DNA from: an uncultured Planctomycetota bacterium
Lineage (GTDB): Bacteria > Planctomycetota > PLA2 > JAEUHO01
Direction: 5' to 3'
Assembly (NCBI GenBank): GCA_963752285.1
Contig: CAVVXN010000001.1
Span: 192,253-256,252, forward strand
Length of the DNA: 64,000 bases
Shown: positions 8,076 to 42,046 of the stretch, piece after piece
Numbering within the stretch: the first letter of the stretch is position 1
Layout: every line of letters begins with the position of its first letter
Notes under the pieces: generated by a model
Seen by the model: only the letters and a program-made list of their open reading frames with translations
What the model was told of the DNA's origin: nothing
The model's database searches: none
Translations under genes and position numbers: made by a program

Positions 8076-9260
8076 CTACTGGTCGGATACCTCCCGCCCG
8101 GCGGTCGCCGGAGCATCCGGGGGGAACGTCCCTTCCAGCACCGAGGCGTAGACGGCCTCGTACTGGGGGACGACGGCGTCCCGGGAGAAACGCTCCACCG
8201 CGGAGCGCCGAGCGGCCGCCTTCAGGCGGGCGAGCCGTTCGCGGTCCTCGAGGAGGTCCGCGGCCCGTTCGCCGAGGTCGTCGATCGCCTCCTCCGGCAC
8301 GAGGAGGCCGTCCACGTCGTCCCGGACGACCTCGGGCAGGCCGCCGGCCCGCGTCACGATCGGCACCACGCCGCAGGCCATGGCCTCGAGCGCGGCCAGG
8401 CCGAACGACTCGTACTCGCTCGGGAGGAACAGCACGTCCGCCGCGGGCAGGAGCGTCTCGACGTTGGCCTGGGCGCCGAGGAATCGCGTGCTCGACCGGA
8501 GCCCGAGGTCCCGCGCGCGCGCCTCGCAGGGCGCCCGATCCGGGCCGTCGCCGATCATCAGGAGCGTCGCCGGACCGCGCGCCCGCACCCGCGCGAAGGC
8601 CTCCACGACCTTCACGGCGCGCTTCACGGGGCGGAAGTTGCTCATGTGGACAACGACCGGCTCACCGCGCGGGGCGAAGCAGGTCTTGACGCTCGGCGAG
8701 ACGTCGGGACGGAACCGCTCGGGGTCCACGAAGTTCGTGATGACCTCGATGGGGCGGTCCACGTCGAAGATGCGTCGGGTCTCCTTCTCGAGGTAGCTCG
8801 ACACGCAGGTGACCGCGTCGCTCGCGAGCAACGCGTGGCGTGTCACGCGCGCGTACGAACGGTCCTGGCCCACGATGGTGATGTCGGTTCCATGGAGCGT
8901 GGTGACGACCGGGAAGGGCCGCGGTTTGAGGATGTCCTTCACGAGCAGCGCCGCGATGGCGTGCGGGATCGCATAGTGCACGTGCACGAGGTCGAGAGAC
9001 GCTTCCTCGGCGACGTCCGCGAGGCGCGAGGCGAGCGCGAGGTCGTACGGGGGATAGCGGAAGAGCGGATACGAGGAGACCTCGACCTCGTGGAGCCGGA
9101 TGTGCTCGTCGAAGACATCGAGGCGCGCGGGCGGCGCGTACGAGACGAGGTGCACCTCGTGACCGTGGAGAGCGAGACCGCGGCCGAGCTCGGTCGCCAC
9201 GACGCCCGAGCCGCCGAAGGTCGGATAGCAGACGATGCCGATCCTCACAGCACCGCCCAT
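8076..9260 (-). CDS. bshA: N-acetyl-alpha-D-glucosaminyl L-malate synthase (GT4 glycosyltransferase), BshA
   Basis: IGIVCYPTFGGSGVVATELGRGLALHGHEVHLV is a BshA-type N-terminus, and EYESFGLAALEAMACGVPIV is the GT4 motif. Adjacent to bshB and bshC. ATG 9260 overlaps the bshB stop by 16 nt. Confidence 0.8.
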   Translation of the reverse strand: MGGAVRIGIVCYPTFGGSGVVATELGRGLALHGHEVHLVSYAPPARLDVFDEHIRLHEVEVSSYPLFRYPPYDLALASRLADVAEEASLDLVHVHYAIPHAIAALLVKDILKPRPFPVVTTLHGTDITIVGQDRSYARVTRHALLASDAVTCVSSYLEKETRRIFDVDRPIEVITNFVDPERFRPDVSPSVKTCFAPRGEPVVVHMSNFRPVKRAVKVVEAFARVRARGPATLLMIGDGPDRAPCEARARDLGLRSSTRFLGAQANVETLLPAADVLFLPSEYESFGLAALEAMACGVVPIVTRAGGLPEVVRDDVDGLLVPEEAIDDLGERAADLLEDRERLARLKAAARRSAVERFSRDAVVPQYEAVYASVLEGTFPPDAPATAGREVSDQ

Positions 9261-9985
9261 CCGCGCTTGCGGAGTGCCGAGACTGGATCGTCGAGCGCGA
9301 TCACCCGCTCCGCGACGTACGGCTCCGCCCACGCCGCGCCGACGCGCGCGCCCCAGTACGCGAATCGCGCCTCGTACCGCCGCATGAAGTCGGGCGAGGA
9401 GAGGTTCGTCGCGGGTCCGCCGTCGGAGGGCCGCCCGAGCTGCGACGCGTAGCAGCTCACGAGCTCGCGCCGCCGCTCCCAAACGTCCGACACGTCGATC
9501 ACGAACGTCGGCGGCGGCTCGAGGTGCCCAAGGTAGTGGAGGATCGCATCGGGACGGTGCGGGGGGAGCCCGTCCACGTCGATCCCGGCGATGGTGGAGA
9601 GGTAGTACGCGCGCTTCACCAGCGCCGCGCCGGCCACGTGGTCGGGATGGAGGTCCACCGGCGCGGGCGCGAGCACGACGCGCGGGCGCCAGCGTCGGAT
9701 CGCCGCGATCGCGGGCCGCGTCGCCTCCGGCGTCGCGACGACGGCGCCGTCGGGAAGCCCGAGGTTCTCCCGCGCGACGAGTCCCATCAGCTTCGTGGCG
9801 CGCGCCGACTCCGCACGCCGCGTCTCGGGAGTGCCCCGGCTGGCGGACTCGCCCGCGGTCAGGTCCACGACGACCGTGCGGCGGCCCTCGTCACGAAGGC
9901 GGAGCATCCAGCCCCCCGCGCAGAGCTCGACGTCGTCGGGGTGCGGGCCGAAGGCCAGCACGTCGATCGGCTCGGGTCTCTCCAA
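9245..9985 (-). CDS. bshB: LmbE/PIG-L family deacetylase, BshB1-like
   Basis: VLAFGPHPDDVELCAGG and HPDH motifs. TTG start with a strong SD (AGGAGG, 7 nt upstream). Confidence 0.8.
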   Translation of the reverse strand: MERPEPIDVLAFGPHPDDVELCAGGWMLRLRDEGRRTVVVDLTAGESASRGTPETRRAESARATKLMGLVARENLGLPDGAVVATPEATRPAIAAIRRWRPRVVLAPAPVDLHPDHVAGAALVKRAYYLSTIAGIDVDGLPPHRPDAILHYLGHLEPPPTFVIDVSDVWERRRELVSCYASQLGRPSDGGPATNLSSPDFMRRYEARFAYWGARVGAAWAEPYVAERVIALDDPVSALRKRGWAVL

Positions 9986-9996
9986 GGTCCTGCCTC

Positions 9997-11655
9997 CTAT
10001 CCGCCCGCGCCGAGAAGGTGCACCAGATGGTGGCCCTCGGCGAGCGGATCGAGGCCGGCGAGCCCCTCGCGAAACGCCTCGACCCCGTGCCGGGCGACGA
10101 GCGACAGAGGCGAGAGGACCCGCTCCTGGGGGCGATCGCGCGGCCAGAGCCAGTCGTGGAGGCGCCGGCGGCGGTCCGCACCGACCCCCCGGTCCCGGTC
10201 GAAGGCGGCGAGGACCGACGGGGCCGACTCCCGCGCCGCCCCGGCGACGCGCTCCCCGGCGCGGGCGAGCGCGCGGGCCACCTCGCCACCGCCCTGCACG
10301 TAGGGGCGAAGGTCCTCAGTCTCTGTCCCGAGGCGCGCGGCCCACGCCGCGAGCGCGCGCTCGAGCGCCGCGCGCTCCTCGGCGTCGGGGACCGCGGACC
10401 GGTCCAGGAGCGCGGGGTCCGAGAGCAGAGCCGCGAGGTCGAGACCGAACGCCCGGACGTTCTTCTCGATCTTCGGCTCGAGCCAGGTGGCGGCGGGACG
10501 CGGCACCGCGAGCGAGGGTCCGAGCCCGACCGCGGGGCGGGCCGCGGCGACCTCGGCGTGGTACGCGAGCTCGGTCGGGCCGCCGACGTAGGCGAGCACG
10601 GGGAGGAGGAGGTCCTGGACGAGGACGCGACCGGCGGCGTCGCCGGACGCGAGGAACGGATCCTCGCGGATGCGCCGCGCCACCTCCGCCACGTCGAGAC
10701 CCGAGGCGCGCCCGCGGAGGAGGACCTCGCCCCCCGGGGTGACGGTCACGCGGAGTCGGGGGCCGCCGCGCTCCTCGCGGAGGAAGAGCGGCGCCTCGCC
10801 GGGCGCCGGGGCGAGCGGCGCGGCGAGCCCGGCCGCCTCGAGCGCGCGGCGGGCGCCGTCGAGCGCCGCGCGGACCTCGGCGTGGCGCTCGAGGAGGCGC
10901 GCGAGCGCGTCGCCCGCGAACGGCAGGAGGACCGGCGGCTCGACGATCACCAGGCCCGCGTCGCCGAGGAGCGACGCGAGCTGGCGCGCCGACCACGTCG
11001 CCAGGTCCTCGCCCTCGTCCGGTTCCGGCAGGGACGCGAGGGCGGCGCGCGCGCGTTCGGTGTCGGGTAGGATGCCCGCCACCTCCTCGCGGAGCGCGGC
11101 GGCGGCCGCGCGGTCCACGGTTCGGTCCATCAGGCTCCGCCCGTCGGCCTCGCCAGGCAGCGAGAGACGGCGCGGACGCCCGTCCCGGTCGAGGAGGCAC
11201 GCGCGGTTCGCCTCGTCGAAGTCGTGGTCCTCGGAGGCGAGCCAGAAGACCGGTACGACGGGCCGACCGTCGAGCGCGGCGAGACGGCGCGCGAGGTGGA
11301 TCGCGCCCGCCGCCTTGTGAAAGGTCATGAGCGGCCCGCCGAGGAGGCCGGGCTGCTGTCCCGTCACCACCGCGACGGCGTCCGGCTCCGCGAGCGCGCG
11401 GGCCGCGGCGACGGCGCGCGGCCCGAGGCCCAACGCGGTCTGACGGGCCGCGACGGCCAGGACGAGGTCGGCCGGCGGACGCGAAGCCTCCCGCCGCGCC
11501 CGGGTGAGCGCCGTCCCCCAGGCCGCGTCGTCCCTCGGCAGCACAGGGAGGAAGCGCGACGCCGGACCCTCGCCCCGGAGCAGCGCGGCGGGGAACGGGC
11601 CGGGCGACGGCGCGCGGTCCGGCGGGATGCGCTCGATCCGGGCCGCCTCGCCCAC
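9997..11655 (-). CDS. bshC: bacillithiol biosynthesis cysteine-adding enzyme BshC
   Basis: VVTGQQPGLLGGPLMTFHKAAGAIHLARRL and VFWLASEDHDFDE signatures. About 550 aa. GTG start 6 nt after the upstream gene's stop. Confidence 0.8.
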   Translation of the reverse strand: MGEAARIERIPPDRAPSPGPFPAALLRGEGPASRFLPVLPRDDAAWGTALTRARREASRPPADLVLAVAARQTALGLGPRAVAAARALAEPDAVAVVTGQQPGLLGGPLMTFHKAAGAIHLARRLAALDGRPVVPVFWLASEDHDFDEANRACLLDRDGRPRRLSLPGEADGRSLMDRTVDRAAAAALREEVAGILPDTERARAALASLPEPDEGEDLATWSARQLASLLGDAGLVIVEPPVLLPFAGDALARLLERHAEVRAALDGARRALEAAGLAAPLAPAPGEAPLFLREERGGPRLRVTVTPGGEVLLRGRASGLDVAEVARRIREDPFLASGDAAGRVLVQDLLLPVLAYVGGPTELAYHAEVAAARPAVGLGPSLAVPRPAATWLEPKIEKNVRAFGLDLAALLSDPALLDRSAVPDAEERAALERALAAWAARLGTETEDLRPYVQGGGEVARALARAGERVAGAARESAPSVLAAFDRDRGVGADRRRRLHDWLWPRDRPQERVLSPLSLVARHGVEAFREGLAGLDPLAEGHHLVHLLGAGG

Positions 11656-11661
11656 GACGCC

Positions 11662-12444
11662 TCAGCGCACCCGGCGCGCCACGCGGATCCAGCGCGGGGC
11701 GTCGGCGTGGAGGGGATTCCCCTCGAAGTCGCCGTACGGCTCTCCCTCGACCGCGAATCCCGCTTCCTCGAGGAGCGCGTCGAGCTCGGACGACGTGTAG
11801 AGCCGGACGCGCTCTTCGTAGCTCCGCTCGACGTGCCCCGTGTCCCGGAGCATCGCCGTCACCGTCTTCCGAACGACGGGGCCTCCGGGCGTGCTCTCGT
11901 CGATCTCGCGCTCGAGGCGGAAGCGGTAGCGACCACGCGTGATCTCGGTGACGGGCTCGAGCGCGCGACGGACGGCGTCGGCGTTCAGGTAGTCGATGAG
12001 GAACCGCCCGCCCGCGACGAGCGCCCGGTTCACGCCCTGCATGATCGCGAGATCGTCTGCTCGCTGCTCGAAGTACCCCAACGACGTGAAGAGCGACACC
12101 GCGGCCTCGAACTGCATGAAGAAGGGGAGCTGTCGGATGTCCCAGCGGACGTAGTCGGGCGCGCCGGGGAGGTCCGCGCTGCGCTCGCGCGCCTCCTCGA
12201 GGAGTTCCGCCGACAGGTCCACGCCGGTCACCTGGAGTCCGCGTCGTCCGAGCGCGCGCGCGTACCGGCCGGCGCCGCACGCGACGTCGAGCACGCGCTG
12301 CCCCGCGCGGAGCCCGAGGAGGCGCAGGATCTCGGGCGCGTGCCGCTCCGCCTCCTCGTCGTCCCGGTGGGGGTAGAGGTGGAGGTACAGGCGGTCGAAC
12401 GCCCGGACGAACCAGGGCGCGTCAGACACGGACGACGGCGGCAT
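11662..12444 (-). CDS. class I SAM-dependent methyltransferase (candidate bacillithiol N-methyltransferase)
   Basis: VLDVACGAGRYARALGRRGLQVTGVDLS motif I. Lies directly upstream of bshC. Start at ATG 12444 or GTG 12429. Confidence 0.75.
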   Translation of the reverse strand: MPPSSVSDAPWFVRAFDRLYLHLYPHRDDEEAERHAPEILRLLGLRAGQRVLDVACGAGRYARALGRRGLQVTGVDLSAELLEEARERSADLPGAPDYVRWDIRQLPFFMQFEAAVSLFTSLGYFEQRADDLAIMQGVNRALVAGGRFLIDYLNADAVRRALEPVTEITRGRYRFRLEREIDESTPGGPVVRKTVTAMLRDTGHVERSYEERVRLYTSSELDALLEEAGFAVEGEPYGDFEGNPLHADAPRWIRVARRVR

Positions 12445-31864: not shown

Positions 31865-34800
31865 TCAGACCCCGGTCCGTCGGCGGTAGACGCGGGCCCG
31901 CGCTTCGCCGTGCGCTTCGACCAGCCGGTGGTCTACGAGCCGCCCCAACTCCCGGTTGACCGTGCGGGGCGAGACGCCGAGCTCGCGGGCGAGAGCGGGG
32001 GCGGCGAGCCAGCGCTTCTCGAGCAGCGTGAGGAGACGTTCCGACCGTGGACCGCGCGCCGCGGGTTCGAGCCGCCGGCCGAGCGCCTTTCGGGTGAGGC
32101 GGGCCCGCTGCGCGATCGCGTTCTCGACCACGTCGGGCGGGACCGAAGGTCCGTCCGAGAGCAGGGCGGCGGCGCGGAGCACGCTGTCGAGCTCGCGGAC
32201 GTTGCCGGGCCACGAGTAGGTGGAGAGCGCCGCGAGGGTGTCGGGCTCGAGGATGCGCGGCGGGTCGAGCTTCTCGAGCAGGTACGCGGAGAGGAGCGCG
32301 AGGTCTCCGCCGCGTTCGCGGAGCGGAGGCAGGAAGATCGTCACGACGCTGAGTCGATGAAAGAGGTCCTCTCGGAAGCGGCCCGCCGCCACCTCGTCCG
32401 CGAGGTCCTGGTGGCTGGCCGAGACGATGCGTACATCGACCTCTCGCGTGCGGGTCCCGCCTACCGGGGTCACGCGCTTCTCCTCGATCACGCGCAGGAG
32501 CGCCACCTGCATGGCGGGCGACATGTCCGCGACCTCGTCGAGGAACAACGTGCCGCGGTGCGCCCGGACGATGACGCCCATGCGGTTCCGGTCCGCGCCG
32601 GTGAACGCGCCACGGACGTGTCCGAAGAGCTCCGAGGCCAGCACGTCGGGTGCGACGGCGCCACAGTTCAAGGGTACGAACGGACCTTGTGCCCGGCCGG
32701 ACGCGGCGTGGAGTGCGTGGGCGATGCGCTCCTTCCCGGTGCCGGTCTCGCCGCGGAGAACGACCGCGCACCGAGACCTCGCGACGCGCATCACCTGGTC
32801 GATGACGCGGCGCCAGGGGCGCGAGCGACCGATCAGCCCCTCGCCCGCGAGCGCCGGCATCTCGGCGGGGCGGCGCCGCACGGCCTCGAGAGCGGTCCGG
32901 CTCGACGGGTCGGCCTTCCGCGTCTCGAAGAACCGGAGGACCGCGCGGACGGCGCGGATCTCGCGCCTCGTGAACTTCCGGCGTCGTGCCAGGCACGCCA
33001 CACCGTCGCCGATCGGCACACAGAGCACGCTGCGCGGCCGTCGCTGTTCCGGCCGCCAGAACTCGGGCCGCGGCCGGACGCCCCGCGGCCGAAAATGCCG
33101 CTCGCGCACGAGACAGTGGATCGTCCACGTCGAGAGCGTGTGCTCGGCCTGCGGCCGCATGTAGAGGTAGTCGCCGCGCCGGTAGTGGAAGAGCACCCAC
33201 CCCCCGACCATCCGCGCGAGCTCCCGAGTCAACCGCCGCTCGATCTCGTCCTCCCGCCCCACACGCCCCGCCGCAATCAGCGCATCCAAGGCATCAATCA
33301 CCCGCGCTGGGCGTGCGCGTCCACTCGTAACTGCAACCCGCCTAGCCAGCGCCCTGACACAAACAGGCAAATTCCGCAGCGCTGGGCCGTCGAAGCCGTG
33401 TGCCTTCGCCACTCGCTCACAACATGATCTGTAGTCCTCAAGAAGGGGTATGGATGGTTCCCGCCCAAATCGTCTCGAAAGCCCGGCCAACTTGACGTAT
33501 GCATCCAGCCCACACGCCAGTGCACCGATGGCCGAAGCCAGGTCGGATGCCCAAATGTGCTGGCGTGCCGCCGCGAGCGAGAGGAGAAGGTGTCTGGCCC
33601 ACGACGGCTCACCGCGCGCCTCGCGGCTGAGGTACTGGCGGTACTTCCGGGGGACTGGTCGGCCTCTCCACGTGCTGCCGCACAGCCGCAGGAGCAAGCC
33701 CTCGCTGACGCTGGGCGCCTCCGGGCTTGCGAGTACCGGTGCCGCGGAGGACCTTGCTTCGCGGTACTGCGCCAGAAGAGGCGCCGGACTCGCCATCGCG
33801 TGCTCCGTGCCGGGAGAGTTCCGCAATCCGGGTGGGAGTACTCCAAGCGAGTGCAAATGCAGGGCGACGCGGCTCTCATCAGGCAACGACGCGGCCTTGC
33901 GCGCCAGACCCGTGAACCGGTTCTTGTCTAGTGCTTCGAGTACGCTGAGGTGGATTCGCAGTTCCGGTGTCATCGGGATGCGCGTCGAGCCAAACCGATG
34001 GGATTTGTCCAGAAGCTTGGCGCGCGTGGGATGAAGGCGATAGCCCTGACCCGCTCGCTCCATGACGTCCACAATCAAGGACGCTCGAGAGCGTGAAAGG
34101 TGCCCGGCTCGGTGCTCCGAAACCGCGCAGTCCGTCGTGGCGTTCCACGCGGACGATCTGATGCCAGCGAGTAATACTGTGCGCAAACCACGGTGGACAA
34201 CACGAGTAATCTGCGTGCGTTCGAACTGCCACGCCATGCGTCTTCGAAACGAGCGGGCCAGAGCTGCCATCTTCTTCAGGCCGGCGGCGCGGCAACGCAC
34301 TTCCGCCCGCATTGCAAGTCGATGGCGATATGTCACCGGATGAGCCGAATACGAGGCGGCGACCGCGAGCCCGTAGGCGGCGAAGGCTCGCATAATGAGC
34401 GCCGCGCCTGGCGGCGCCGAGCGCAGGTGTGTCCGGATGCCCGCGATCGTCGGCCGGTCTCGCTGCAGGATCGCCGCCAGAATCGCCTGCGCGTATGGAG
34501 ATAGGCCACTCAAGTGGCGGTGAAGCTTGCCCGCTATCAATTTGTAGACACTGCGCGCGATGCGACGCTGTCCATCTGTCTTAGGCAACATGACGACCAA
34601 GTGTTCAGCGATCTGCAGCAGTCGTAATTGTGAATCCGAACGCCGCGCGAGCCAGCGCAATTTGGCGAGGTACCCCTCGTGCTCTGCGTTCTGCCGCAGA
34701 AGGAATGAAGATGCGCTCCGGGATCTGCGTCGTCGCGGACGGTCCAGGAACAGCGTGCGCACAAACCGCAGGGTGGCCGGTGTGGGGTCGCAGTAGGTCA

Positions 34801-35050
34801 GCAGCATCGCGAGAGCCAAGGAGTGGGCCGGAACAGCAGAATTGATGCTGATCGCGATGACCGTGGGGGCGGGCCGGCCTCGCGCCCGCCTTCTCGACAG
34901 CTCCAGCGCGAGGGCCATGGCGCCGTCAGTCGCCTCCGGACGCGGGATCACAACTCTGCGCCCGACGCGCCGGTTCGCCCCCGTTCCCTTATGGGGACCC
35001 CTCGGCCTACTCCCCGAAACCGCAACTAACAAGGGGCGAACATACATCAC
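31865..35050 (-). CDS. sigma54-dependent transcriptional activator (GAF-like + AAA+ + wHTH) with ~580-aa N-terminal extension of unknown function
   Basis: AAA+ core: VLRGETGTGKERIAHALH, GAFTGA, GTLFLDEVADMS, WPGNVREL. C-terminal HTH: LARELGVSPRTVNRELGRL. The ORF is uninterrupted for 1061 codons although its upstream 1.7 kb lies in lower-GC DNA. First codons are GTG 35050 and ATG 35047; the true start is uncertain. Confidence 0.7.
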   Translation of the reverse strand: MMYVRPLLVAVSGSRPRGPHKGTGANRRVGRRVVIPRPEATDGAMALALELSRRRARGRPAPTVIAISINSAVPAHSLALAMLLTYCDPTPATLRFVRTLFLDRPRRRRSRSASSFLLRQNAEHEGYLAKLRWLARRSDSQLRLLQIAEHLVVMLPKTDGQRRIARSVYKLIAGKLHRHLSGLSPYAQAILAAILQRDRPTIAGIRTHLRSAPPGAALIMRAFAAYGLAVAASYSAHPVTYRHRLAMRAEVRCRAAGLKKMAALARSFRRRMAWQFERTQITRVVHRGLRTVLLAGIRSSAWNATTDCAVSEHRAGHLSRSRASLIVDVMERAGQGYRLHPTRAKLLDKSHRFGSTRIPMTPELRIHLSVLEALDKNRFTGLARKAASLPDESRVALHLHSLGVLPPGLRNSPGTEHAMASPAPLLAQYREARSSAAPVLASPEAPSVSEGLLLRLCGSTWRGRPVPRKYRQYLSREARGEPSWARHLLLSLAAARQHIWASDLASAIGALACGLDAYVKLAGLSRRFGREPSIPLLEDYRSCCERVAKAHGFDGPALRNLPVCVRALARRVAVTSGRARPARVIDALDALIAAGRVGREDEIERRLTRELARMVGGWVLFHYRRGDYLYMRPQAEHTLSTWTIHCLVRERHFRPRGVRPRPEFWRPEQRRPRSVLCVPIGDGVACLARRRKFTRREIRAVRAVLRFFETRKADPSSRTALEAVRRRPAEMPALAGEGLIGRSRPWRRVIDQVMRVARSRCAVVLRGETGTGKERIAHALHAASGRAQGPFVPLNCGAVAPDVLASELFGHVRGAFTGADRNRMGVIVRAHRGTLFLDEVADMSPAMQVALLRVIEEKRVTPVGGTRTREVDVRIVSASHQDLADEVAAGRFREDLFHRLSVVTIFLPPLRERGGDLALLSAYLLEKLDPPRILEPDTLAALSTYSWPGNVRELDSVLRAAALLSDGPSVPPDVVENAIAQRARLTRKALGRRLEPAARGPRSERLLTLLEKRWLAAPALARELGVSPRTVNRELGRLVDHRLVEAHGEARARVYRRRTGV

Positions 35051-35156
35051 TCCGGATCATCCACTACCCGCGGAGTGCCGTGCAAGGCCTAAAACTACGG
35101 GCCCCACCCGCCAGAGGACATCTGGGTCCGGTGTTCAGAAATCTAAACGCCCAAAG

Positions 35157-35185
35157 TTGAGATTTCGCGCGGCGTGTCCTATTCT
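35157..35185 (+). promoter_or_regulatory. sigma70-like promoter candidate TTGAGA-N17-TATTCT
   Basis: Read directly in the AT-richer spacer, 58 nt upstream of ATG 35243. It overlaps the inverted repeat GAAATCT-N15-AGATTTC (35138-35166). Confidence 0.3.
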
Positions 35186-35242
35186 CTCACCACCTCGATG
35201 GGCGCTCGGTGCGTCGAGGAGTAGCACGTGGAGGGTGGCTCG

Positions 35243-35578
35243 ATGCGAAAGCTCGTGGCGCTCACGTTAGTGGTCGCCGTAGCCATAGCGCTGACGGCAT
35301 CGGCGAAGGCTGGCCCGAGCCCGATGGGCGTGCGGTATCAGCACGACGGCTTCCTCGGGACTCTGAGTTTCGCCGAAGCGCAGGGGCATCTCTATATCGC
35401 GGAAGATTCGCATGGTCTCCCGGTCGGCACCGGGCCCATCCCCCTTCCGCTGTGGAGCGTGCCGACGCCCAACTGTGGGCCGGACAAGAACGGGACGATC
35501 CTACGGGTGCACATCCTCCCGGAGGACATCCTTGTCACCATCTCGGACAACGACGAAGACTGGCGCTGGCTGCGCTAG
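35243..35578 (+). CDS. orphan small secreted protein (111 aa)
   Basis: GGAGGG SD 7 nt upstream of the ATG. Signal peptide MRKLVALTLVVAVAIALTASAKA. The mature part has no recognisable family. A hairpin terminator follows. Confidence 0.5.
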   Translation: MRKLVALTLVVAVAIALTASAKAGPSPMGVRYQHDGFLGTLSFAEAQGHLYIAEDSHGLPVGTGPIPLPLWSVPTPNCGPDKNGTILRVHILPEDILVTISDNDEDWRWLR

Positions 35579-35616
35579 CCACGATCCAAGTTCGAGATCC
35601 GCTTGGGCAACACTCG

Positions 35617-35640
35617 GGGCCGGCTCGGAAGAGCCGGCCC
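35617..35640. terminator. bidirectional GC hairpin between convergent genes (GGGCCGGCTC-ggaa-GAGCCGGCCC)
   Basis: 10-bp perfect stem with a GGAA loop. It abuts the hybrid-kinase stop (35641) and lies 38 nt after the small ORF's stop. Confidence 0.6.
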
Positions 35641-37770
35641 TTACTCTGCGCCCGCCGATACGAAGCGCGCGAGTAGTTGGCTTGCCCGCTCCATGGGGAA
35701 GGGTTTCGCCAGAACCTCAGCAGCGCCCGCGGCTAGTGCCCTATTCGGATCCACATCGCTTGCCCACCCGCTCATGAGAACCACCGGAAGGTTGGGGTGC
35801 AAAGCGCGCAACTGGCTGCACAGTTCAATGCCACTCATCCCCGGCATGCCAACGTCAGAAAGGACTACATCTGGCCTCTCCGCCCGAGCAATGCGAAGCG
35901 CCTCCTCGCCGCTCGTGGCCCGAATGACCCGAAAATTGCGGCGTTCTAGATAGGAGCACACCGGGTCAAGGACGGATGCATCGTCATCTACTACGAGCAC
36001 CGTCCCTGATCCGGGGCGATCCTTCCGGGGCGCAGGCACATCATCGCCCCGGCCGGCCGTGGCGCGCTGAGCGGCCGGAAGGGAGAAGGTCACTACAGTT
36101 CCCTTTCCGGGTGGGCAGGCGAGGGAAATCCTGCCGCCGTGCTTCTCCACGATTTGCTGGCATAGGCAAAGCCCGAGCCCTGTCCCGCGCTCACCCTTCG
36201 TTGTAAAGAATGGATCGAACACTCGCTCCCTAAGTTGCACCGCGATCCCACAGCCGTTGTCGCGCACGGTGACTTGAACCCGGCCGCCTCGCCGTGCCGC
36301 GGTAACGCCGATGCGGCCACCGACTTCGATCGCCTCAAGAGCATTTTTCAACAGGTTTGTCATCACCTCGCGGAGTTCCGTGGGGTCGCCTCGCACTTGA
36401 AGTTGGGTTTCACACCGAAGTTGGACAACGGCTGTCTGCTCGCTGCCGCCGCGCCCGCCGCGCCAAAGAGGGCGCAGAAGATCGATCGCGTCGCGACACA
36501 CGTCCTCCATATTCAGCACACGGAAGTCATGTTGCCTTTGATTCCTGCTGAACGTCTGTAGCCTGCGCACAACCTCTGCCGCGTCGAGAGCGGCACGCTC
36601 TATTAGCGCCAAATCTGCTTGCGCCTGGCCTGCGAGTGAGCCAAGGCTCATCATCTGTACGCGCGCCAGTATGGACGTGAGAAGATTATTGAACTCATGC
36701 GCGACGCCACTACTGATTTCTCCAATGACGCGTAGACGTTCGCCCCTAACAAGCCGGTCCTGGAGCGTCTTCAGTTCCAAGAACGACGCCTGGATGTTCT
36801 CGAGTAGCCTCGTGGACTCCAGAGCCGCAGCCGCTTGCTCGGCGAACAGTGAGAGGACTTCCAGGTCGATACGGTCGAATGCGATGGCCCGGTCGGTGTC
36901 CACATACAACACTCCGTACATGACATCATTGCGAAGCATTGGCACACAGAGGATCGATTGCCGAAGAAGCATAATGCTGTGAGCGCCGGCAAGTTCGTTC
37001 GGAGATAGTCCCTGTACCGAAGAGGAGTCCAGGCCGTCAGATGCAGGGCTAAGATTGACAGGGCGCCTGGTCGACCGGACCTTCTCGATCACCGTGTGGC
37101 TGAGGTCGCTTAGGCTGACCTGCTCGCCCGCCGAAGCGGCCCAGCTACTGGCGCCAAGAGCGAGGGATTGAGATTCGTCGACCAGAACGACGCAGGCCCG
37201 CTGGGCCCCCATGATCTCGGTCATGTGGCCAGTCAGGCCGTCCAGTAGTTGTTTCAAGCCCCCGCCGGAGCGCATGGCGGCAGAGGCCTCAAGCACGCGC
37301 CGAAGCGCGAGGGCGAGACGCTGGTCCGGAACAACGGTGGACCCCTGGTCCACCAGTGCCTTGTGCGCAACCGCATGAAGGTCTAAGAGGCCTAGTTTCC
37401 TTGGAAGCGGCAAGCCGGACGCGGCAGAGAGGTCCTGGGCGGCTAGCCGAACTTCATCTGAGAGTCCGGTGCGCGTTCCTGCATGTTGAATACCAATGCG
37501 GTCCAGGGTGGAGACCGCGCTCGAGAACAAACTGGCGCGCACGCGAGCCGAATGGGGAGGGGTGGCTGCGCACATTGCGGCAAGAACTCTTGCGGCTAGC
37601 GAACGCAGATTCGAGGCACGCGCGAAAGCATCCAAAACAGGAAACAGAGCGCGGCGCACGCCGTCGGACCCGGACGCGTGCAGTGCGCAAGCAGTATTCG
37701 GCTGCAAGGCGCCCGTCCTGGCCCGCGGGTATTGCGGGGGCGGGGGGCCGACGCGCCGAGGAGGAATCAT
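35641..37770 (-). CDS. GAF-domain hybrid sensor histidine kinase with C-terminal receiver
   Basis: GAF-like MTEIMGAQRACVVLVDES..CVPMLRNDVMYGVLYVD. H-box SSGVAHEFNNLLTSIL. N/G boxes LLKNALEA, DNGCGI, GTGLGL. REC: VLVVDDD..DVVLSDVGMPGMSG..LAKPF. The N-terminal 105 codons overlap ORF 37454-38260, so the start is uncertain. Confidence 0.85.
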   Translation of the reverse strand: MIPPRRVGPPPPQYPRARTGALQPNTACALHASGSDGVRRALFPVLDAFARASNLRSLAARVLAAMCAATPPHSARVRASLFSSAVSTLDRIGIQHAGTRTGLSDEVRLAAQDLSAASGLPLPRKLGLLDLHAVAHKALVDQGSTVVPDQRLALALRRVLEASAAMRSGGGLKQLLDGLTGHMTEIMGAQRACVVLVDESQSLALGASSWAASAGEQVSLSDLSHTVIEKVRSTRRPVNLSPASDGLDSSSVQGLSPNELAGAHSIMLLRQSILCVPMLRNDVMYGVLYVDTDRAIAFDRIDLEVLSLFAEQAAAALESTRLLENIQASFLELKTLQDRLVRGERLRVIGEISSGVAHEFNNLLTSILARVQMMSLGSLAGQAQADLALIERAALDAAEVVRRLQTFSRNQRQHDFRVLNMEDVCRDAIDLLRPLWRGGRGGSEQTAVVQLRCETQLQVRGDPTELREVMTNLLKNALEAIEVGGRIGVTAARRGGRVQVTVRDNGCGIAVQLRERVFDPFFTTKGERGTGLGLCLCQQIVEKHGGRISLACPPGKGTVVTFSLPAAQRATAGRGDDVPAPRKDRPGSGTVLVVDDDASVLDPVCSYLERRNFRVIRATSGEEALRIARAERPDVVLSDVGMPGMSGIELCSQLRALHPNLPVVLMSGWASDVDPNRALAAGAAEVLAKPFPMERASQLLARFVSAGAE

Positions 37771-38260
37771 CGAGATGCTCTCTCAAGCGGGTGCGTCGGG
37801 CCCATAGCATCGCGCGATAGAGTGCGCGATACTGTGTATGCAGGGCGGGCCGTCGAGCTTGGGGAGTAGCAGAGAGCGTCACCGTGCCGCCCGCACCGGC
37901 CTCAGAAAGGTGCGAGAGGTAGTCGAGTCCGTCACGCTCGTTTTGGAGAAGTGCGTCTCGGTATCGGGACGCGCGTGAGAGGGACACTGTGTGCCGTTGA
38001 CTGAGGCCTGCGTGCAGGTGTGCAAGTGCTGCGCTGTAGTAGTGCATCCCTCTGACATATAGGGGTGTGTTCTCGGCTGGGACGCCGCTAGAAAGCGGCG
38101 CCTCACGCGCTGCCGTTGCAGTCGTACGCAGCACTTCCACGTAGACCGACATAGCTCCAAGAGCGGCGGCGAGTGGCGCGAGTTCGCGTGCGACCGCCGG
38201 TGCTTGATCGAACCTGGAAAACCGTTTCGCTACATGCCATGCTCGCATGTACGCAGTCAT
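37454..38260 (-). pseudogene. probable detached C-terminal continuation of the 38332-41232 kinase gene (frame-shifted); 3' third likely non-coding
   Basis: This frame stays open upstream to about 38460. Inserting one G in the G5 run (C5 on plus strand, 38395-38399) joins ..MARIHAKRG to ELVHAVLFASDCVGIAQRHGLTDTLIRALRELADAYDRQYRPDLAMTAYMRAWHVAKRF.., which continues the helical-repeat character. Downstream of about 37780 the translation becomes R/S/C-rich while the hybrid-kinase frame looks genuine. Confidence 0.4.
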
Positions 38261-38331
38261 GGCGAGGTCAGGTCTGTACTGGCGGTCGTACGCGTCGGCA
38301 AGTTCTCTAAGAGCGCGAATGAGGGTGTCGG

Positions 38332-41232
38332 TTAGCCCGTGCCTCTGGGCAATGCCAACGCAATCGGAGGCGAAGAGTACGGCATGGACGAGTTCCCCCT
38401 CTTGGCGTGGATGCGGGCCATGTTGAGCGTGGTGAACGCAGCTCCGCGCACGTCTCCTAGTCGCTTGGCAAAGCGCGCAGCGCGGGCGAAGCTCCGCGTC
38501 GCCTCCCGACCGCGCTGCATTTGGGCCAGCGCAATACCTTGATTGTTAAGGATGCGGCTCTGCATTGAGCGGTCGCGTATGAGGCGGGCGTACTGCTGGG
38601 CCAGACGGAGGCAGCGAAGGGCCTGGGATGATCTGCGAAGCAGGAACTTGGAACGTGCGACTGCAGTCAGGTACTCGGCGCGCATGCGCAGAAAGGCGTG
38701 GTTAACGGGCGCCTGCACGCGAAGAGAGCGTCGGCACTCCCTCAGAAAGGATCGGGCCTCATCGATGCTACGTCGATCAAACGCGAGTGAGGCTCGTGCG
38801 ATGAAGTACTTGGCAGCCAAGATCGCGTCGGTCGTAGTCGATGGATACCAAGCCTCGAGTAGCGTCTCCGCGAGCGCCGGCTCCTCCGCGTCCTCCATGA
38901 TGCGCGCTAGGCGGAGCGCTGAGTCCGGAGTGTCTGCGTCTGGGGTGAGGTGCGCAGCGAGGATCCGGGCTGGACCTAGGCCCTCGTGGCTTGAGGGGAT
39001 GAGGGCGCACAGCACTCTGCGCGCCTCTGGGGATGCGAGAAGTGCAGCGTTCTGTGAGACGGCCGATACCAGCCGGGGCTGGAGGCGGGAGAGAGCTTTC
39101 GGATCTAAGGGCGGTTCATGTTGGGCGATCAGTTGAATGGCGTCGAAATGGCGCCCGAGCGCAAAGAGGAGGATCGCGCGCTCAAGGCGATTCGAGATTG
39201 TGGGTGCCGACTCATAGGCGGAGAGGAGGGACTGGCGGGAGGCCTCCAGATCAAAGGCAGGGACCTCCGATCGAAGGGCGTCACGCAAGGCGGCGTCGGC
39301 GAGGGCACAACAGGGGCCTTGGTCGGTAGGAACGACAGAGAGAAGGGGCGTGGAGAAGACAAGGTGGCGAATCGGCGCATTGAGGAATACGCGCTCGAGA
39401 ACCTGCATGGGCACACTGCCCTCAGCGGCGAGGAGCACCGTCAAAACGCTGCGGAGTAAAGGGCCCGCGTCAGCGACTGCGTTGCGCATGGAGGGTGCGA
39501 GGCGGGCTGGGACGTCATATTCTGGCAGGCACGACGTTTCCCAAATCCAATTCCCGTATCCTCCAGAGAGGTCGCCGCGTCTTGCTGCCGCTGCGGCGTA
39601 GTCGACGATCCGACCGGACTTGTGTTGTGTGAGTTGTGCAAGAGCTTCCCTGGGCGCCGGTCCCGCATGCTGGGGACCCAGCCGCGTCTCGATCAGTTGC
39701 CAGGCTTCCTGAGCTGACAAGGCGCCAATGTGGCATAGGACGTCTCCTGGAGACGATGTGTCATGAATAATTAGTGATTGCGTGTCTAGACCGCCGGCGT
39801 CCAGAGCAAGGACCAAGGGCGGCGGGGGCTCGGAGAGCAGGTGCTCCGTGCGCGAGAGCATTTCGCGCGACAGGGCGGCCAAGGCGTCCCGGGCTAGTTT
39901 TGGCAAGTCGGAGTAGTCGTCCACGAGGATCGCATATGCACCCTGGGCCGACGCCTGGATGGCCCTACGCACAAAGTACTCAATCGCGTGTCCAGCGGGC
40001 CAGGATGCAAGAGACCGCGCCCGTTGCTGTGCCAGTTCGGAGGGCTGTACGCGCGATGCTAGGGTGTCGATAGAATCCAGCAGCGCGGCGATCGGGGACT
40101 CTTCACTCGGCCAATCGCGTCGACCAGAGAGATAGACAGTGGCACACTCGAGCAGGCGGGCTTGGTGGAGGAACTCGCGCACGAGGCGGGTCGCGCCGGA
40201 GCGTGGGGGCGCGGTGAGTATCAGTACGGAGTCTGCTCCGCGGCGGGCGCTGAGTCCAGCGACGCCCGTCGCTTGGCGGCGGAGGAGGGTGACCATCTTG
40301 CGGAAGCGGGTCAGGGCTTCCTCTTGGCCGATCAGCGGGCCGCTCTCGATCCGGGCGTAGATCTCGGCGGGGCGGACTTCGGGAACCTCCCAAGACACGT
40401 GCTGGGCGAGCTGGAGCAGGATGGCTCGACCGTCCGAGGGGCGCTGGTTCGGGTCGCGGGCGAGTAGGGCGAGGATCAGGTCTTCGAGGGCGGTAGGGAT
40501 GTCGTTTCGGAGCGCACTGGGACGGGGAGGAAGCTCCTCGCGCCGGCGGCGGAGCATGTCGGCCGCGCCGTCGTCGGGCATCGGGATCGCGTCCTGTCCC
40601 GTGACGAGGCGGTACGCGATCAGTCCGAGGGAGTAGAGGTCTACGCGGTGGTCGTGGCCCTGGTCCTCGGTGACCTCGGGAGCCATGTACAGCGGCGTGC
40701 CGCGCGCGACGCCCTCGACGGGCCCGACGCTCGCCAGGGCGCCGTCCGTGAGGATGAAGCGCGGGCCGTCCTTCGTCTCCTCGAGGATCCAGTTGGACGG
40801 CGTCACGTCGTAGTGGATGACGCCGAGGTCGTGCACCGCGCGGAGTACGCGGGCGCCGTCCTCGAGGAATCGCCACACGAACTCGAACGGCTGGGGGCCG
40901 TCGAGGTGATCGAGGCTCTCGCCGTCCACGTAGCGCTGGGCCTGGAACCAGGACTCGACCGTGGGCCCCCCTGCGGTCGTGTCGGCGGGAACCACCCCGG
41001 CATCGAGGACCTGGGCCCAGTTGGGGTGACGGAACCAGTGGAGGACGCGGGCCGCCTCCTCCATGAAGGCGTAGCCCTCGCGGGACGACTGGGTCAGCTT
41101 GAGGGCGACCTGCTCGCCCCCGCGCGCGAGGTCCTCGGCGAGGTAGACCGTGCTGTGGGCGCCCTGACCGATGACCCGGCCGAGGCGATACCGACCGACC
41201 AGGATCTGGGTGAGGTCGGGATCGTTCGCCAT
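38332..41232 (-). CDS. Ser/Thr protein kinase fused to AAA_16/STAND-like NTPase (degenerate P-loop) and TPR-like helical repeats
   Basis: Kinase: YRLGRVIGQGAHSTVYLA, VALK, HYDVTPSNWIL, TDGAL, GTPLYMAPE. NTPase: LILTAPPRSGATRLV (Walker A Lys replaced by Ala) and AILVDDYSD (Walker B). C-terminal TPR-like repeats (NNQGIALAQMQRGREATRSFARAARFAKRLGD). Confidence 0.85.
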   Translation of the reverse strand: MANDPDLTQILVGRYRLGRVIGQGAHSTVYLAEDLARGGEQVALKLTQSSREGYAFMEEAARVLHWFRHPNWAQVLDAGVVPADTTAGGPTVESWFQAQRYVDGESLDHLDGPQPFEFVWRFLEDGARVLRAVHDLGVIHYDVTPSNWILEETKDGPRFILTDGALASVGPVEGVARGTPLYMAPEVTEDQGHDHRVDLYSLGLIAYRLVTGQDAIPMPDDGAADMLRRRREELPPRPSALRNDIPTALEDLILALLARDPNQRPSDGRAILLQLAQHVSWEVPEVRPAEIYARIESGPLIGQEEALTRFRKMVTLLRRQATGVAGLSARRGADSVLILTAPPRSGATRLVREFLHQARLLECATVYLSGRRDWPSEESPIAALLDSIDTLASRVQPSELAQQRARSLASWPAGHAIEYFVRRAIQASAQGAYAILVDDYSDLPKLARDALAALSREMLSRTEHLLSEPPPPLVLALDAGGLDTQSLIIHDTSSPGDVLCHIGALSAQEAWQLIETRLGPQHAGPAPREALAQLTQHKSGRIVDYAAAAARRGDLSGGYGNWIWETSCLPEYDVPARLAPSMRNAVADAGPLLRSVLTVLLAAEGSVPMQVLERVFLNAPIRHLVFSTPLLSVVPTDQGPCCALADAALRDALRSEVPAFDLEASRQSLLSAYESAPTISNRLERAILLFALGRHFDAIQLIAQHEPPLDPKALSRLQPRLVSAVSQNAALLASPEARRVLCALIPSSHEGLGPARILAAHLTPDADTPDSALRLARIMEDAEEPALAETLLEAWYPSTTTDAILAAKYFIARASLAFDRRSIDEARSFLRECRRSLRVQAPVNHAFLRMRAEYLTAVARSKFLLRRSSQALRCLRLAQQYARLIRDRSMQSRILNNQGIALAQMQRGREATRSFARAARFAKRLGDVRGAAFTTLNMARIHAKRGNSSMPYSSPPIALALPRGTG

Positions 41233-41285: not shown

Positions 41286-42046
41286 CCTCCTCTTAGCCGG
41301 GCCTGAACGGATGACGGTCCGGCTCTCGAGGCGACGCGTGCTCCCTCGATCCTAGGACCGGGCGCGGCCCGGCGCACGCGTCGAGCTGGTCGGGTGCCAG
41401 CCGCGAGCGCACGCGCCCGGGCCGCCTGGATGGCCTCCATGATCCGCTCGACGTACGCCGTCTCCGCCTCGCGGTTGCCCGCGACGTCGGCGGGCGGAGG
41501 CGCCAGCGGCGCCCCGAAGGCCAGGCGGACGTGCGCGCGGCGGAACCAGCGGGCGCCCCGCGGCCACGTCTCGAAGTTCCCGGCGAGCCCCACCGGGACC
41601 ACGGGGGCCCGCCCCTTGCGCGCGAGGATCGCCACCCCGCGCCGCCCGCGCCCGATCTTGCCGTCGCGGCTGAGCCTCCCCTCGGGGAAGATCGCGACGG
41701 GCTGACCCTCGCGGAGCAGAGCCACGGCGCGCCCGATCCCCGCTCGGGCCAGGCCGCCGCTCCCGACGGGGATGGCGCCGACGAGCTTGAAGAACCACCG
41801 GCCGGCCCAACGCCGGTAGAAGTCGTCGGTCATCATGAAGACGACCCGGCGGCGGATCACCAGCTGGAGGAACGCCGGGTCGAGATAGCTCGCGTGATTC
41901 GCGCAGACGATCGACGCTCCGCGCGGGAGGCGGGGCCGCGGGCCGATCGTGCGAACGAGGAAGAGTGGGCGGGCGAAGAAGAGGACGACCGCGCGGAGCG
42001 CCCCGTAGCCGAACTCGTAGACCGGGTTCCAGATGCGCCCCCACAT
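41279..42046 (-). CDS. plsC: 1-acyl-sn-glycerol-3-phosphate acyltransferase family protein
   Basis: VCANHASYLDP (HxxxxD block), FPEGRLS and the VPVGL block. ATG 42046 (MWGRIWNP). Confidence 0.8.
   Translation of the reverse strand: MWGRIWNPVYEFGYGALRAVVLFFARPLFLVRTIGPRPRLPRGASIVCANHASYLDPAFLQLVIRRRVVFMMTDDFYRRWAGRWFFKLVGAIPVGSGGLARAGIGRAVALLREGQPVAIFPEGRLSRDGKIGRGRRGVAILARKGRAPVVPVGLAGNFETWPRGARWFRRAHVRLAFGAPLAPPPADVAGNREAETAYVERIMEAIQAARARALAAGTRPARRVRRAAPGPRIEGARVASRAGPSSVQARLRGGR

Follow-up and report, generated by a model that had tools for sequence, protein, structure and literature searches.

Bacterial enhancer-binding proteins (bEBPs), which activate sigma54-dependent transcription, are modular proteins, and it is usually their N-terminal domain that governs assembly of the ring or its ATPase activity. 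Members of the NtrC/NifA/NorR/RtcR class carry an AAA+ domain with Walker A, GAFTGA and Walker B motifs, followed by a lid and a C-terminal helix-turn-helix (HTH), and the usual DNA-binding domain of NtrC-class bEBPs is the Fis-type HTH_8. An example of N-terminal control is NorR, whose GAF domain is reported to repress the AAA+ ATPase until a signal is received (PMC2941729). Here we describe a sigma54-dependent activator gene in a 64,000-nucleotide (nt) stretch of DNA (the window) from an uncultured Planctomycetota bacterium (assembly GCA_963752285.1, contig CAVVXN010000001.1, positions 192,253 to 256,252). The gene occupies 31865..35047 on the minus strand, as defined from the list of open reading frames (ORFs), the translation and tblastn matches in relatives, and encodes 1060 amino acids (aa) plus a stop codon. 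Its product resembles the described bEBPs in the order of motor, lid and HTH, and differs from them in an N-terminal part of 735 aa that matches no known sensor model and in an HTH of weak, winged-helix type. Our reading, to which we assign a probability of roughly 0.8, is that this product is a single intact sigma54 enhancer-binding protein, vertically inherited and equipped with a lineage-specific N-terminal input module. The proposed protein would comprise four parts, namely the input module (residues 1-105 and 114-575), a linker (residues 584-735), the AAA+ motor and a winged-helix-type HTH.

The minus-strand frame at 31865..35050 runs for 1061 codons without a stop, according to the ORF list and its translation. 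Codons 1-583 contain 0 stops where 14.7 are expected from base composition (P about 4e-7), shuffled versions of this stretch were stop-free in 0 of 20000 cases, and the remaining five frames contain 9-18 stops apiece. The in-frame extension of about 580 codons remarked on in a preliminary description of this DNA is thus confirmed as being open well beyond chance. That description placed the beginning of the frame at GTG 35050. In the family alignment nearly all homologues have their start codon 2-5 codons upstream of the conserved RPLL motif, and the likely start in the window was therefore corrected to ATG 35047 (MYVRPLL...).

The C-terminal part of the protein is that of an otherwise ordinary bEBP. 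Residues 739-905 (32336..32836, minus strand) match the sigma54 interaction domain Sigma54_activat (PF00158, E=9e-63) at 211 bits against a Pfam cut-off of 20.2, and residues 911-984 (32099..32320, minus strand) match AAA_lid_14 (PF25601, E=2e-13). The Walker A sequence GETGTGKE, the GAFTGA loop and the Walker B sequence LFLDEV can be read in the translation and are kept in all homologues. The same genome encodes rpoN (PF04552, E=4.7e-60), and the combination of intact motifs with a genomic sigma54 indicates that the protein is probably a working sigma54 activator. The AAA+ part scores best against RtcR/PspF-like, NifA and NorR models; all equivalog scores are far under their cut-offs and cover only this part, while PADLOC matched only generic AAA+ and kinase domains. 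The DNA-binding HTH, at about residues 1000-1050 (31901..32053, minus strand), has weak Pfam matches to MarR_2, HTH_38, HTH_Crp_2 and HTH_11 (E about 4e-4 to 1e-2, all under cut-offs) and an additional match to the Csa3 wHTH (E=0.004), and one homologue matches HTH_11 at 5e-7. HTH_8 is absent among the Pfam matches listed for the activator at E<=0.1. Judged by its sequence, the domain looks winged-helix/MarR-like and not Fis-type.

Residues 1-735 have no Pfam or NCBIfam match, which includes the REC, GAF, PAS, V4R, CARF and FHA models, and the number of NCBIfam families matched by residues 1-583 is zero. A word-indexed homologue search with residues 1-600 returned nothing because members of the family have diverged too far to share 5-mers, and homologues were found instead by whole-genome tblastn-type searches and exhaustive phmmer. 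A search with the 583-aa extension gave matches in 15 of 41 related genomes, covering 10 genera of a single family, with no match beyond that family in the searched genomes. Most of these matches fall in open frames of approximately 1035-1115 aa, and the complete architecture of about 1060 aa is found again in at least 14 further Planctomycetota metagenome-assembled genomes. When the whole protein was used for tblastn, matches of 36-47% identity were obtained at eleven loci in relatives; in seven of these a single segment spans nearly the entire protein (36-43% identity) and in the other four the match begins only at residue 219-467 (40-47% identity). Exhaustive phmmer against 1.84 billion representative proteins gave 16 hits. 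All of those that are long enough bear Sigma54_activat at the expected offset and the remainder are short fragments, with offsets and lengths that agree with the same architecture clipped by contig ends. No stand-alone version of the 583-aa part, of the kind that the preliminary description suggested looking for, was seen among these hits. A scan of GTDB species genomes detected 18 loci, all in Planctomycetota or Planctomycetia metagenome-assembled genomes, and the DNA runs bearing the sequence are from soil and wetland metagenomes.

Conservation of the extension is visible at the protein level. Across about 10 genera, residues 1-583 share 24-33% identity, and five columns (M1, R52, L82, R289 and N376) are invariant in a 15-sequence alignment. 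At least 14 homologues are without stops through this region at a GC content of about 66%. The order of GC content across the three codon positions that is expressed as GC1>GC2<GC3 is also kept in the extension. Residues 114-575 are fast-evolving, with pairwise identities between homologues of 15-33% and a GC content at third codon positions (GC3) of 0.63-0.71.

An AlphaFold2 model of the extension, built with the 15-sequence alignment, has a predicted local distance difference test (pLDDT) score of 75.5 and a predicted template modelling (pTM) score of 0.57. A single-sequence AlphaFold2 model of residues 1-736 has a pLDDT of 37 and is usable for secondary structure only. In the alignment-based model, residues 1-105 (34733..35047, minus strand) form a small alpha/beta cap that bears the RPLL and CDPTP motifs, is marked by conserved columns and has pLDDT values mostly of 86-93, the loop at 16-28 excepted; strands are predicted at 6-11, 31-34 and 63-68 and helices at 36-56, 73-85 and 90-101. 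That the cap might be a pseudo-receiver domain was considered and is regarded as doubtful: one of its strands, V[IV]A[IL]E[IV]D[PS], is like receiver beta3, but the strand order misfits and the acidic residues are lost in the window protein. Residues 114-575 (33323..34708, minus strand) are modelled as all-helical, with about 25 helices of 10-21 residues each in an alpha-solenoid arrangement like that of tetratricopeptide repeats (TPRs).

This predicted arrangement resembles TPR/alpha-solenoid domains in its antiparallel helix pairs of 12-20 residues, stacked along some 460 aa, and differs from them in the absence of structure matches at E<=1e-3 and of any significant Pfam TPR model. The best E-values from Foldseek against PDB and BFVD were 0.02-0.1 with TM-scores of <=0.36, none of the 50 best matches listed from each database reaching E<=1e-3. 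The matches of highest probability were generic TPR/solenoid proteins, namely the TSK/BRU1 TPR, APC5 and LGN, all of them weak matches, with probabilities of 0.93-0.96 for 7t7t. PDB sequence-profile searches with two alignments yielded only chance-level TPR-like matches (TTC21B, E=0.06; YscY, E=0.22), and among 10 members compared with Pfam at E<=1, TPR_14 was matched by one (E=0.31). The preliminary description had proposed structure and profile searches of the extension as a means of choosing between a recombinase and a sensor fold: neither a recombinase was listed nor a confident sensor fold obtained at E<=1e-3. Its fallback suggestion of a new sensory domain is supported by the conserved fusion together with the helical-repeat prediction. 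We therefore regard the N-terminal 580 aa as a real and fast-evolving input domain, likely to be of helical-repeat type as judged from the model, that is seen only in the sigma54 activators of one Planctomycetota family.

Between this module and the motor lies an alpha/beta linker module at residues 584-735 (32843..33298, minus strand), which contains invariant alignment columns and is the most conserved part of the protein apart from the AAA+ domain. Near-invariant motifs within it are HTLSxW and EFWRPEQRRP (33035-33064, minus strand). The low-confidence single-sequence model, which is the only source for its secondary structure, suggests the order alpha-alpha-beta(5)-alpha. A 'GAF-like' label had earlier been attached to this segment and was not borne out: there is no Pfam GAF match in the window protein, one of 10 homologues has such a match at E=0.075, and hhalign of the module against the GAF-domain alignment of the neighbouring kinase gave a probability of 0.2%.

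The preliminary description also drew attention to a step in GC content within the gene, which is confirmed here. Over codons 1-600 GC3 takes values of about 0.60-0.78, rising to about 0.85-0.92 thereafter, and in the N-terminal part all four-fold codon families are shifted toward A/T-ending codons. From about 33300 to 40400 bulk GC amounts to 62-67%, the genome mean being 73%; the genome contains a total of 56 such low-GC stretches, which make up about 5% of its length. A drop in GC3 in the N-terminal half of the activator (to about 0.65-0.70) was present in 11 of 11 homologues examined (loci L011-L039). Averaged over 13 homologues by alignment column, GC3 was 0.63-0.74 for residues 1-440, 0.75-0.80 for residues 441-600 and 0.80-0.88 beyond residue 600. 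Across homologues, the GC3 of a block was correlated with its amino-acid identity (Spearman 0.81), with a coefficient of 0.58 for the N-terminal part alone. As the step is shared by homologues and tracks conservation, we interpret it as an inherited property linked to the rate of protein evolution rather than as an insertion border. Lower GC3 in fast-evolving segments may have arisen because GC-biased gene conversion is weaker where sequences have diverged too far for homologous recombination.

Vertical inheritance was examined with maximum-likelihood trees of five partitions: the bEBP C-terminus, the bEBP N-terminus, the adjacent hybrid histidine kinase (HK), and the kinase domain and C-terminus of a nearby Ser/Thr kinase (STK). 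In all five the window is sister to a relative from the same genus with support of 88-100, and this agreement indicates that inheritance looks vertical. The low-GC partitions are on long branches, with support for the sister grouping of 100/99 for HK, 88/96 for the bEBP N-terminus and 99/98 for the STK C-terminus.

Other explanations of the extension and of its composition have to be weighed against this reading. The preliminary description favoured a decayed tyrosine recombinase gene, ending at the GC step, that lost its stop codon and now reads into an activator of about 470 aa, the step being the border of an inserted element. The GC3 step in the window is indeed sharp and lies near codon 600, the lower-GC block extends for about 7 kb with composition changes at its ends that fall inside two genes, and a perfect 15-nt direct repeat, ATCTCGGCGGGGCGG, is present at 32859-32873 and 40361-40375 with its copies 7502 nt apart. 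However, this single exact pair, found on following up the suggestion of att-like repeats near the borders, is at chance level (by our estimate, about 0.3 pairs are expected in 9 kb of such composition), and while the copy at 40361 coincides with the GC3 step of the STK gene, that at 32859 is about 400 nt inside the high-GC side of the activator. The window is without a tRNA gene and the lower-GC block is without an integrase or transposase gene. The likeness to tyrosine recombinases consists of a loose order of three short segments in the window sequence alone. In the family alignment, the segments previously likened to box I, box II and the catalytic Tyr are found at positions that vary or are gapped, the candidate Arg is variable, no conserved His or Tyr column fits the box II / Tyr pattern, and the invariant R52, L82, R289 and N376 do not fit the catalytic pattern R..K..HxxR..H/W..Y. 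Phage_integrase (PF00589) was not matched at E<=0.1 by the window protein or at E<=1 by 10 members, no recombinase was found by the PDB profile searches or among the Foldseek matches listed, and the predicted fold is a helical-repeat region rather than a recombinase catalytic fold. Since about 10 genera share the fusion, the position of its start and the order of the neighbouring genes, the GC3 step is present in all homologues examined, and the trees are congruent within and beyond the low-GC block, the notion of a decayed integrase is refuted, in part by conditions that the preliminary description had itself named, and we give it almost no credence.

A different possibility accepts that the architecture is old and supposes that the low-GC block, from the bEBP N-terminus to the STK C-terminus, was acquired by the ancestor of the genus through homologous replacement, with a lower-GC relative as donor. 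This would account for the low GC3 of HK and of the STK C-terminal part, which is confined to the window and its same-genus relative, values in other genera being 0.8-0.9; it also fits the identity of the window HK to that of the same-genus relative (51%), which is no higher than that to other genera (49-54%). The trees for HK, the bEBP N-terminus and the STK C-terminus nevertheless pair the window with the same-genus relative, as do the flanks, their long branches fit acceleration rather than import, and the depression of GC3 in the bEBP N-terminus extends to all genera. Moreover, synonymous sites are saturated between the two genomes, from which we reason that an historical import should have ameliorated. 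An import is thus improbable, although less so than the remaining alternative, in which a short form is mainly made from an internal start near V584 or M614 and the upstream part is rarely translated or has another role. In-frame GTG/ATG codons are present near residues 584 and 614, the upstream part has lower GC3 and poorer codon usage, and RNA runs with this sequence were not found. We consider it very unlikely given that the upstream residues are conserved as protein, with invariant columns and a conserved start context, in about 10 genera, that at least 14 homologues of about 66% GC remain stop-free there, that a confident AlphaFold2 model was derived from covariation in the upstream frame, and that the codon-position pattern is retained.

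Several observations weigh against an intact, vertically inherited activator with a helical-repeat module, which remains our preferred reading. The search for RNA runs bearing the sequence found none. As all Foldseek E-values exceed 0.01, 'TPR-like' refers to an architecture and homology is not claimed; with only 15 sequences and a pTM of 0.57, the relative placement of the repeats is uncertain. The sister grouping in the bEBP N-terminal and STK C-terminal trees could reflect long-branch attraction. A scan of the window for -24/-12 promoters (TGGCAC-N5-TTGC) detected no site at <=1 mismatch and 27 sites at 2 mismatches versus 34 expected, and when the divergent intergenic region was compared across 15 loci no conserved sigma54 promoter emerged, nor did one in the sequence preceding STK. 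A sequence TGGCAC-N5-CAGC with a perfect -24 element does occur at 41385-41399 (minus strand), some 150 nt before the start of STK and within the 3' end of the acyltransferase gene; none of the 9 relatives in which the STK N-terminus is present has it. Finally, one homologue (L015; G009:C3, about 8766-12032, in a 10-contig genome) has two in-frame stops within the extension region. In this homologue there is a non-homologous stretch around residues 470-530, and part of the missing match sits in another frame, which suggests paired frameshifts due either to long-read indel errors or to a decaying copy.

The activator belongs to a cluster whose order is syntenic across genera: acyltransferase, STK, (orf268), hybrid HK, a small secreted protein and the activator. 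The small protein, of 111 aa, is encoded at 35243..35578 on the plus strand, divergently from the activator and convergently with the hybrid kinase. It has a signal-peptide-like N-terminus (MRKLVALTLVVAVAIALTASAKA) and a GGAGG sequence upstream. In 6 other genomes tblastn detected it in the same place, flanked by the kinase and activator genes, at 30-41% identity; no match was found in NCBIfam or PADLOC. The HK gene (35641..37770, minus strand) encodes a hybrid kinase with GAF, HisKA, HATPase and receiver domains, and the STK gene (38332..41232, minus strand) a Ser/Thr protein kinase whose long C-terminal part is helical and contains TPRs; both were assigned from Pfam matches and are conserved neighbours. 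GC3 in STK is 0.92 for the kinase domain and about 0.68 for the remainder. Between the STK and HK genes, and overlapping the HK start region, lies orf268 (268 aa; 37454-38260, minus strand), in which weak conservation, at 31-34% identity in two relatives, is limited to the first 160-200 or so residues. It has a flat GC3 of 0.62 and no family match, and may be either a gene in its own right or the tail of STK in a shifted frame.

By analogy with other bEBPs, the N-terminal module would control assembly of the AAA+ ring or its ATPase activity, in a manner comparable with the N-terminal repression of the AAA+ domain in NorR. As the predicted module presents a helical-repeat surface and not a small-molecule pocket, such control would be expected to operate through binding or modification by a protein partner. 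The most plausible partners would be the co-conserved Ser/Thr kinase and the hybrid histidine kinase encoded next door. A more specific proposal, which we regard as doubtful, is that the extension is a family-restricted receptor arm that gates the activator by recognizing a variable protein partner. This would resemble the gating of the NTPase by TPR sensor arms in STAND NTPases. Candidate partners under this tentative proposal would be the adjacent STAND-like Ser/Thr kinase, the hybrid kinase, or a protein of external or invader origin. On this view the rate at which the extension evolves is about four times that of the AAA+ motor, and the conserved depression of GC3 might, again doubtfully, be read as the footprint of persistent rapid evolution.

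The general picture of bEBPs is unchanged by these results, and the organisms are uncultured, so that any practical impact is modest. The case also carries a lesson of method: a GC step inside a gene of a high-GC genome, earlier taken for a scar of horizontal transfer, is here conserved and vertically inherited. The novelty is an undescribed helical-repeat input module, its fold being that of the model, on an otherwise ordinary bEBP; the module is without a Pfam, NCBIfam or PDB relative and has 16 representatives in 1.84 billion protein clusters. New input domains are of interest because they reveal signals that can be read by sigma54 regulons. In this Planctomycetota family the neighbours of the module always include a Ser/Thr kinase and a hybrid histidine kinase, and eukaryote-like and two-component phosphorylation may therefore converge on one sigma54 activator.

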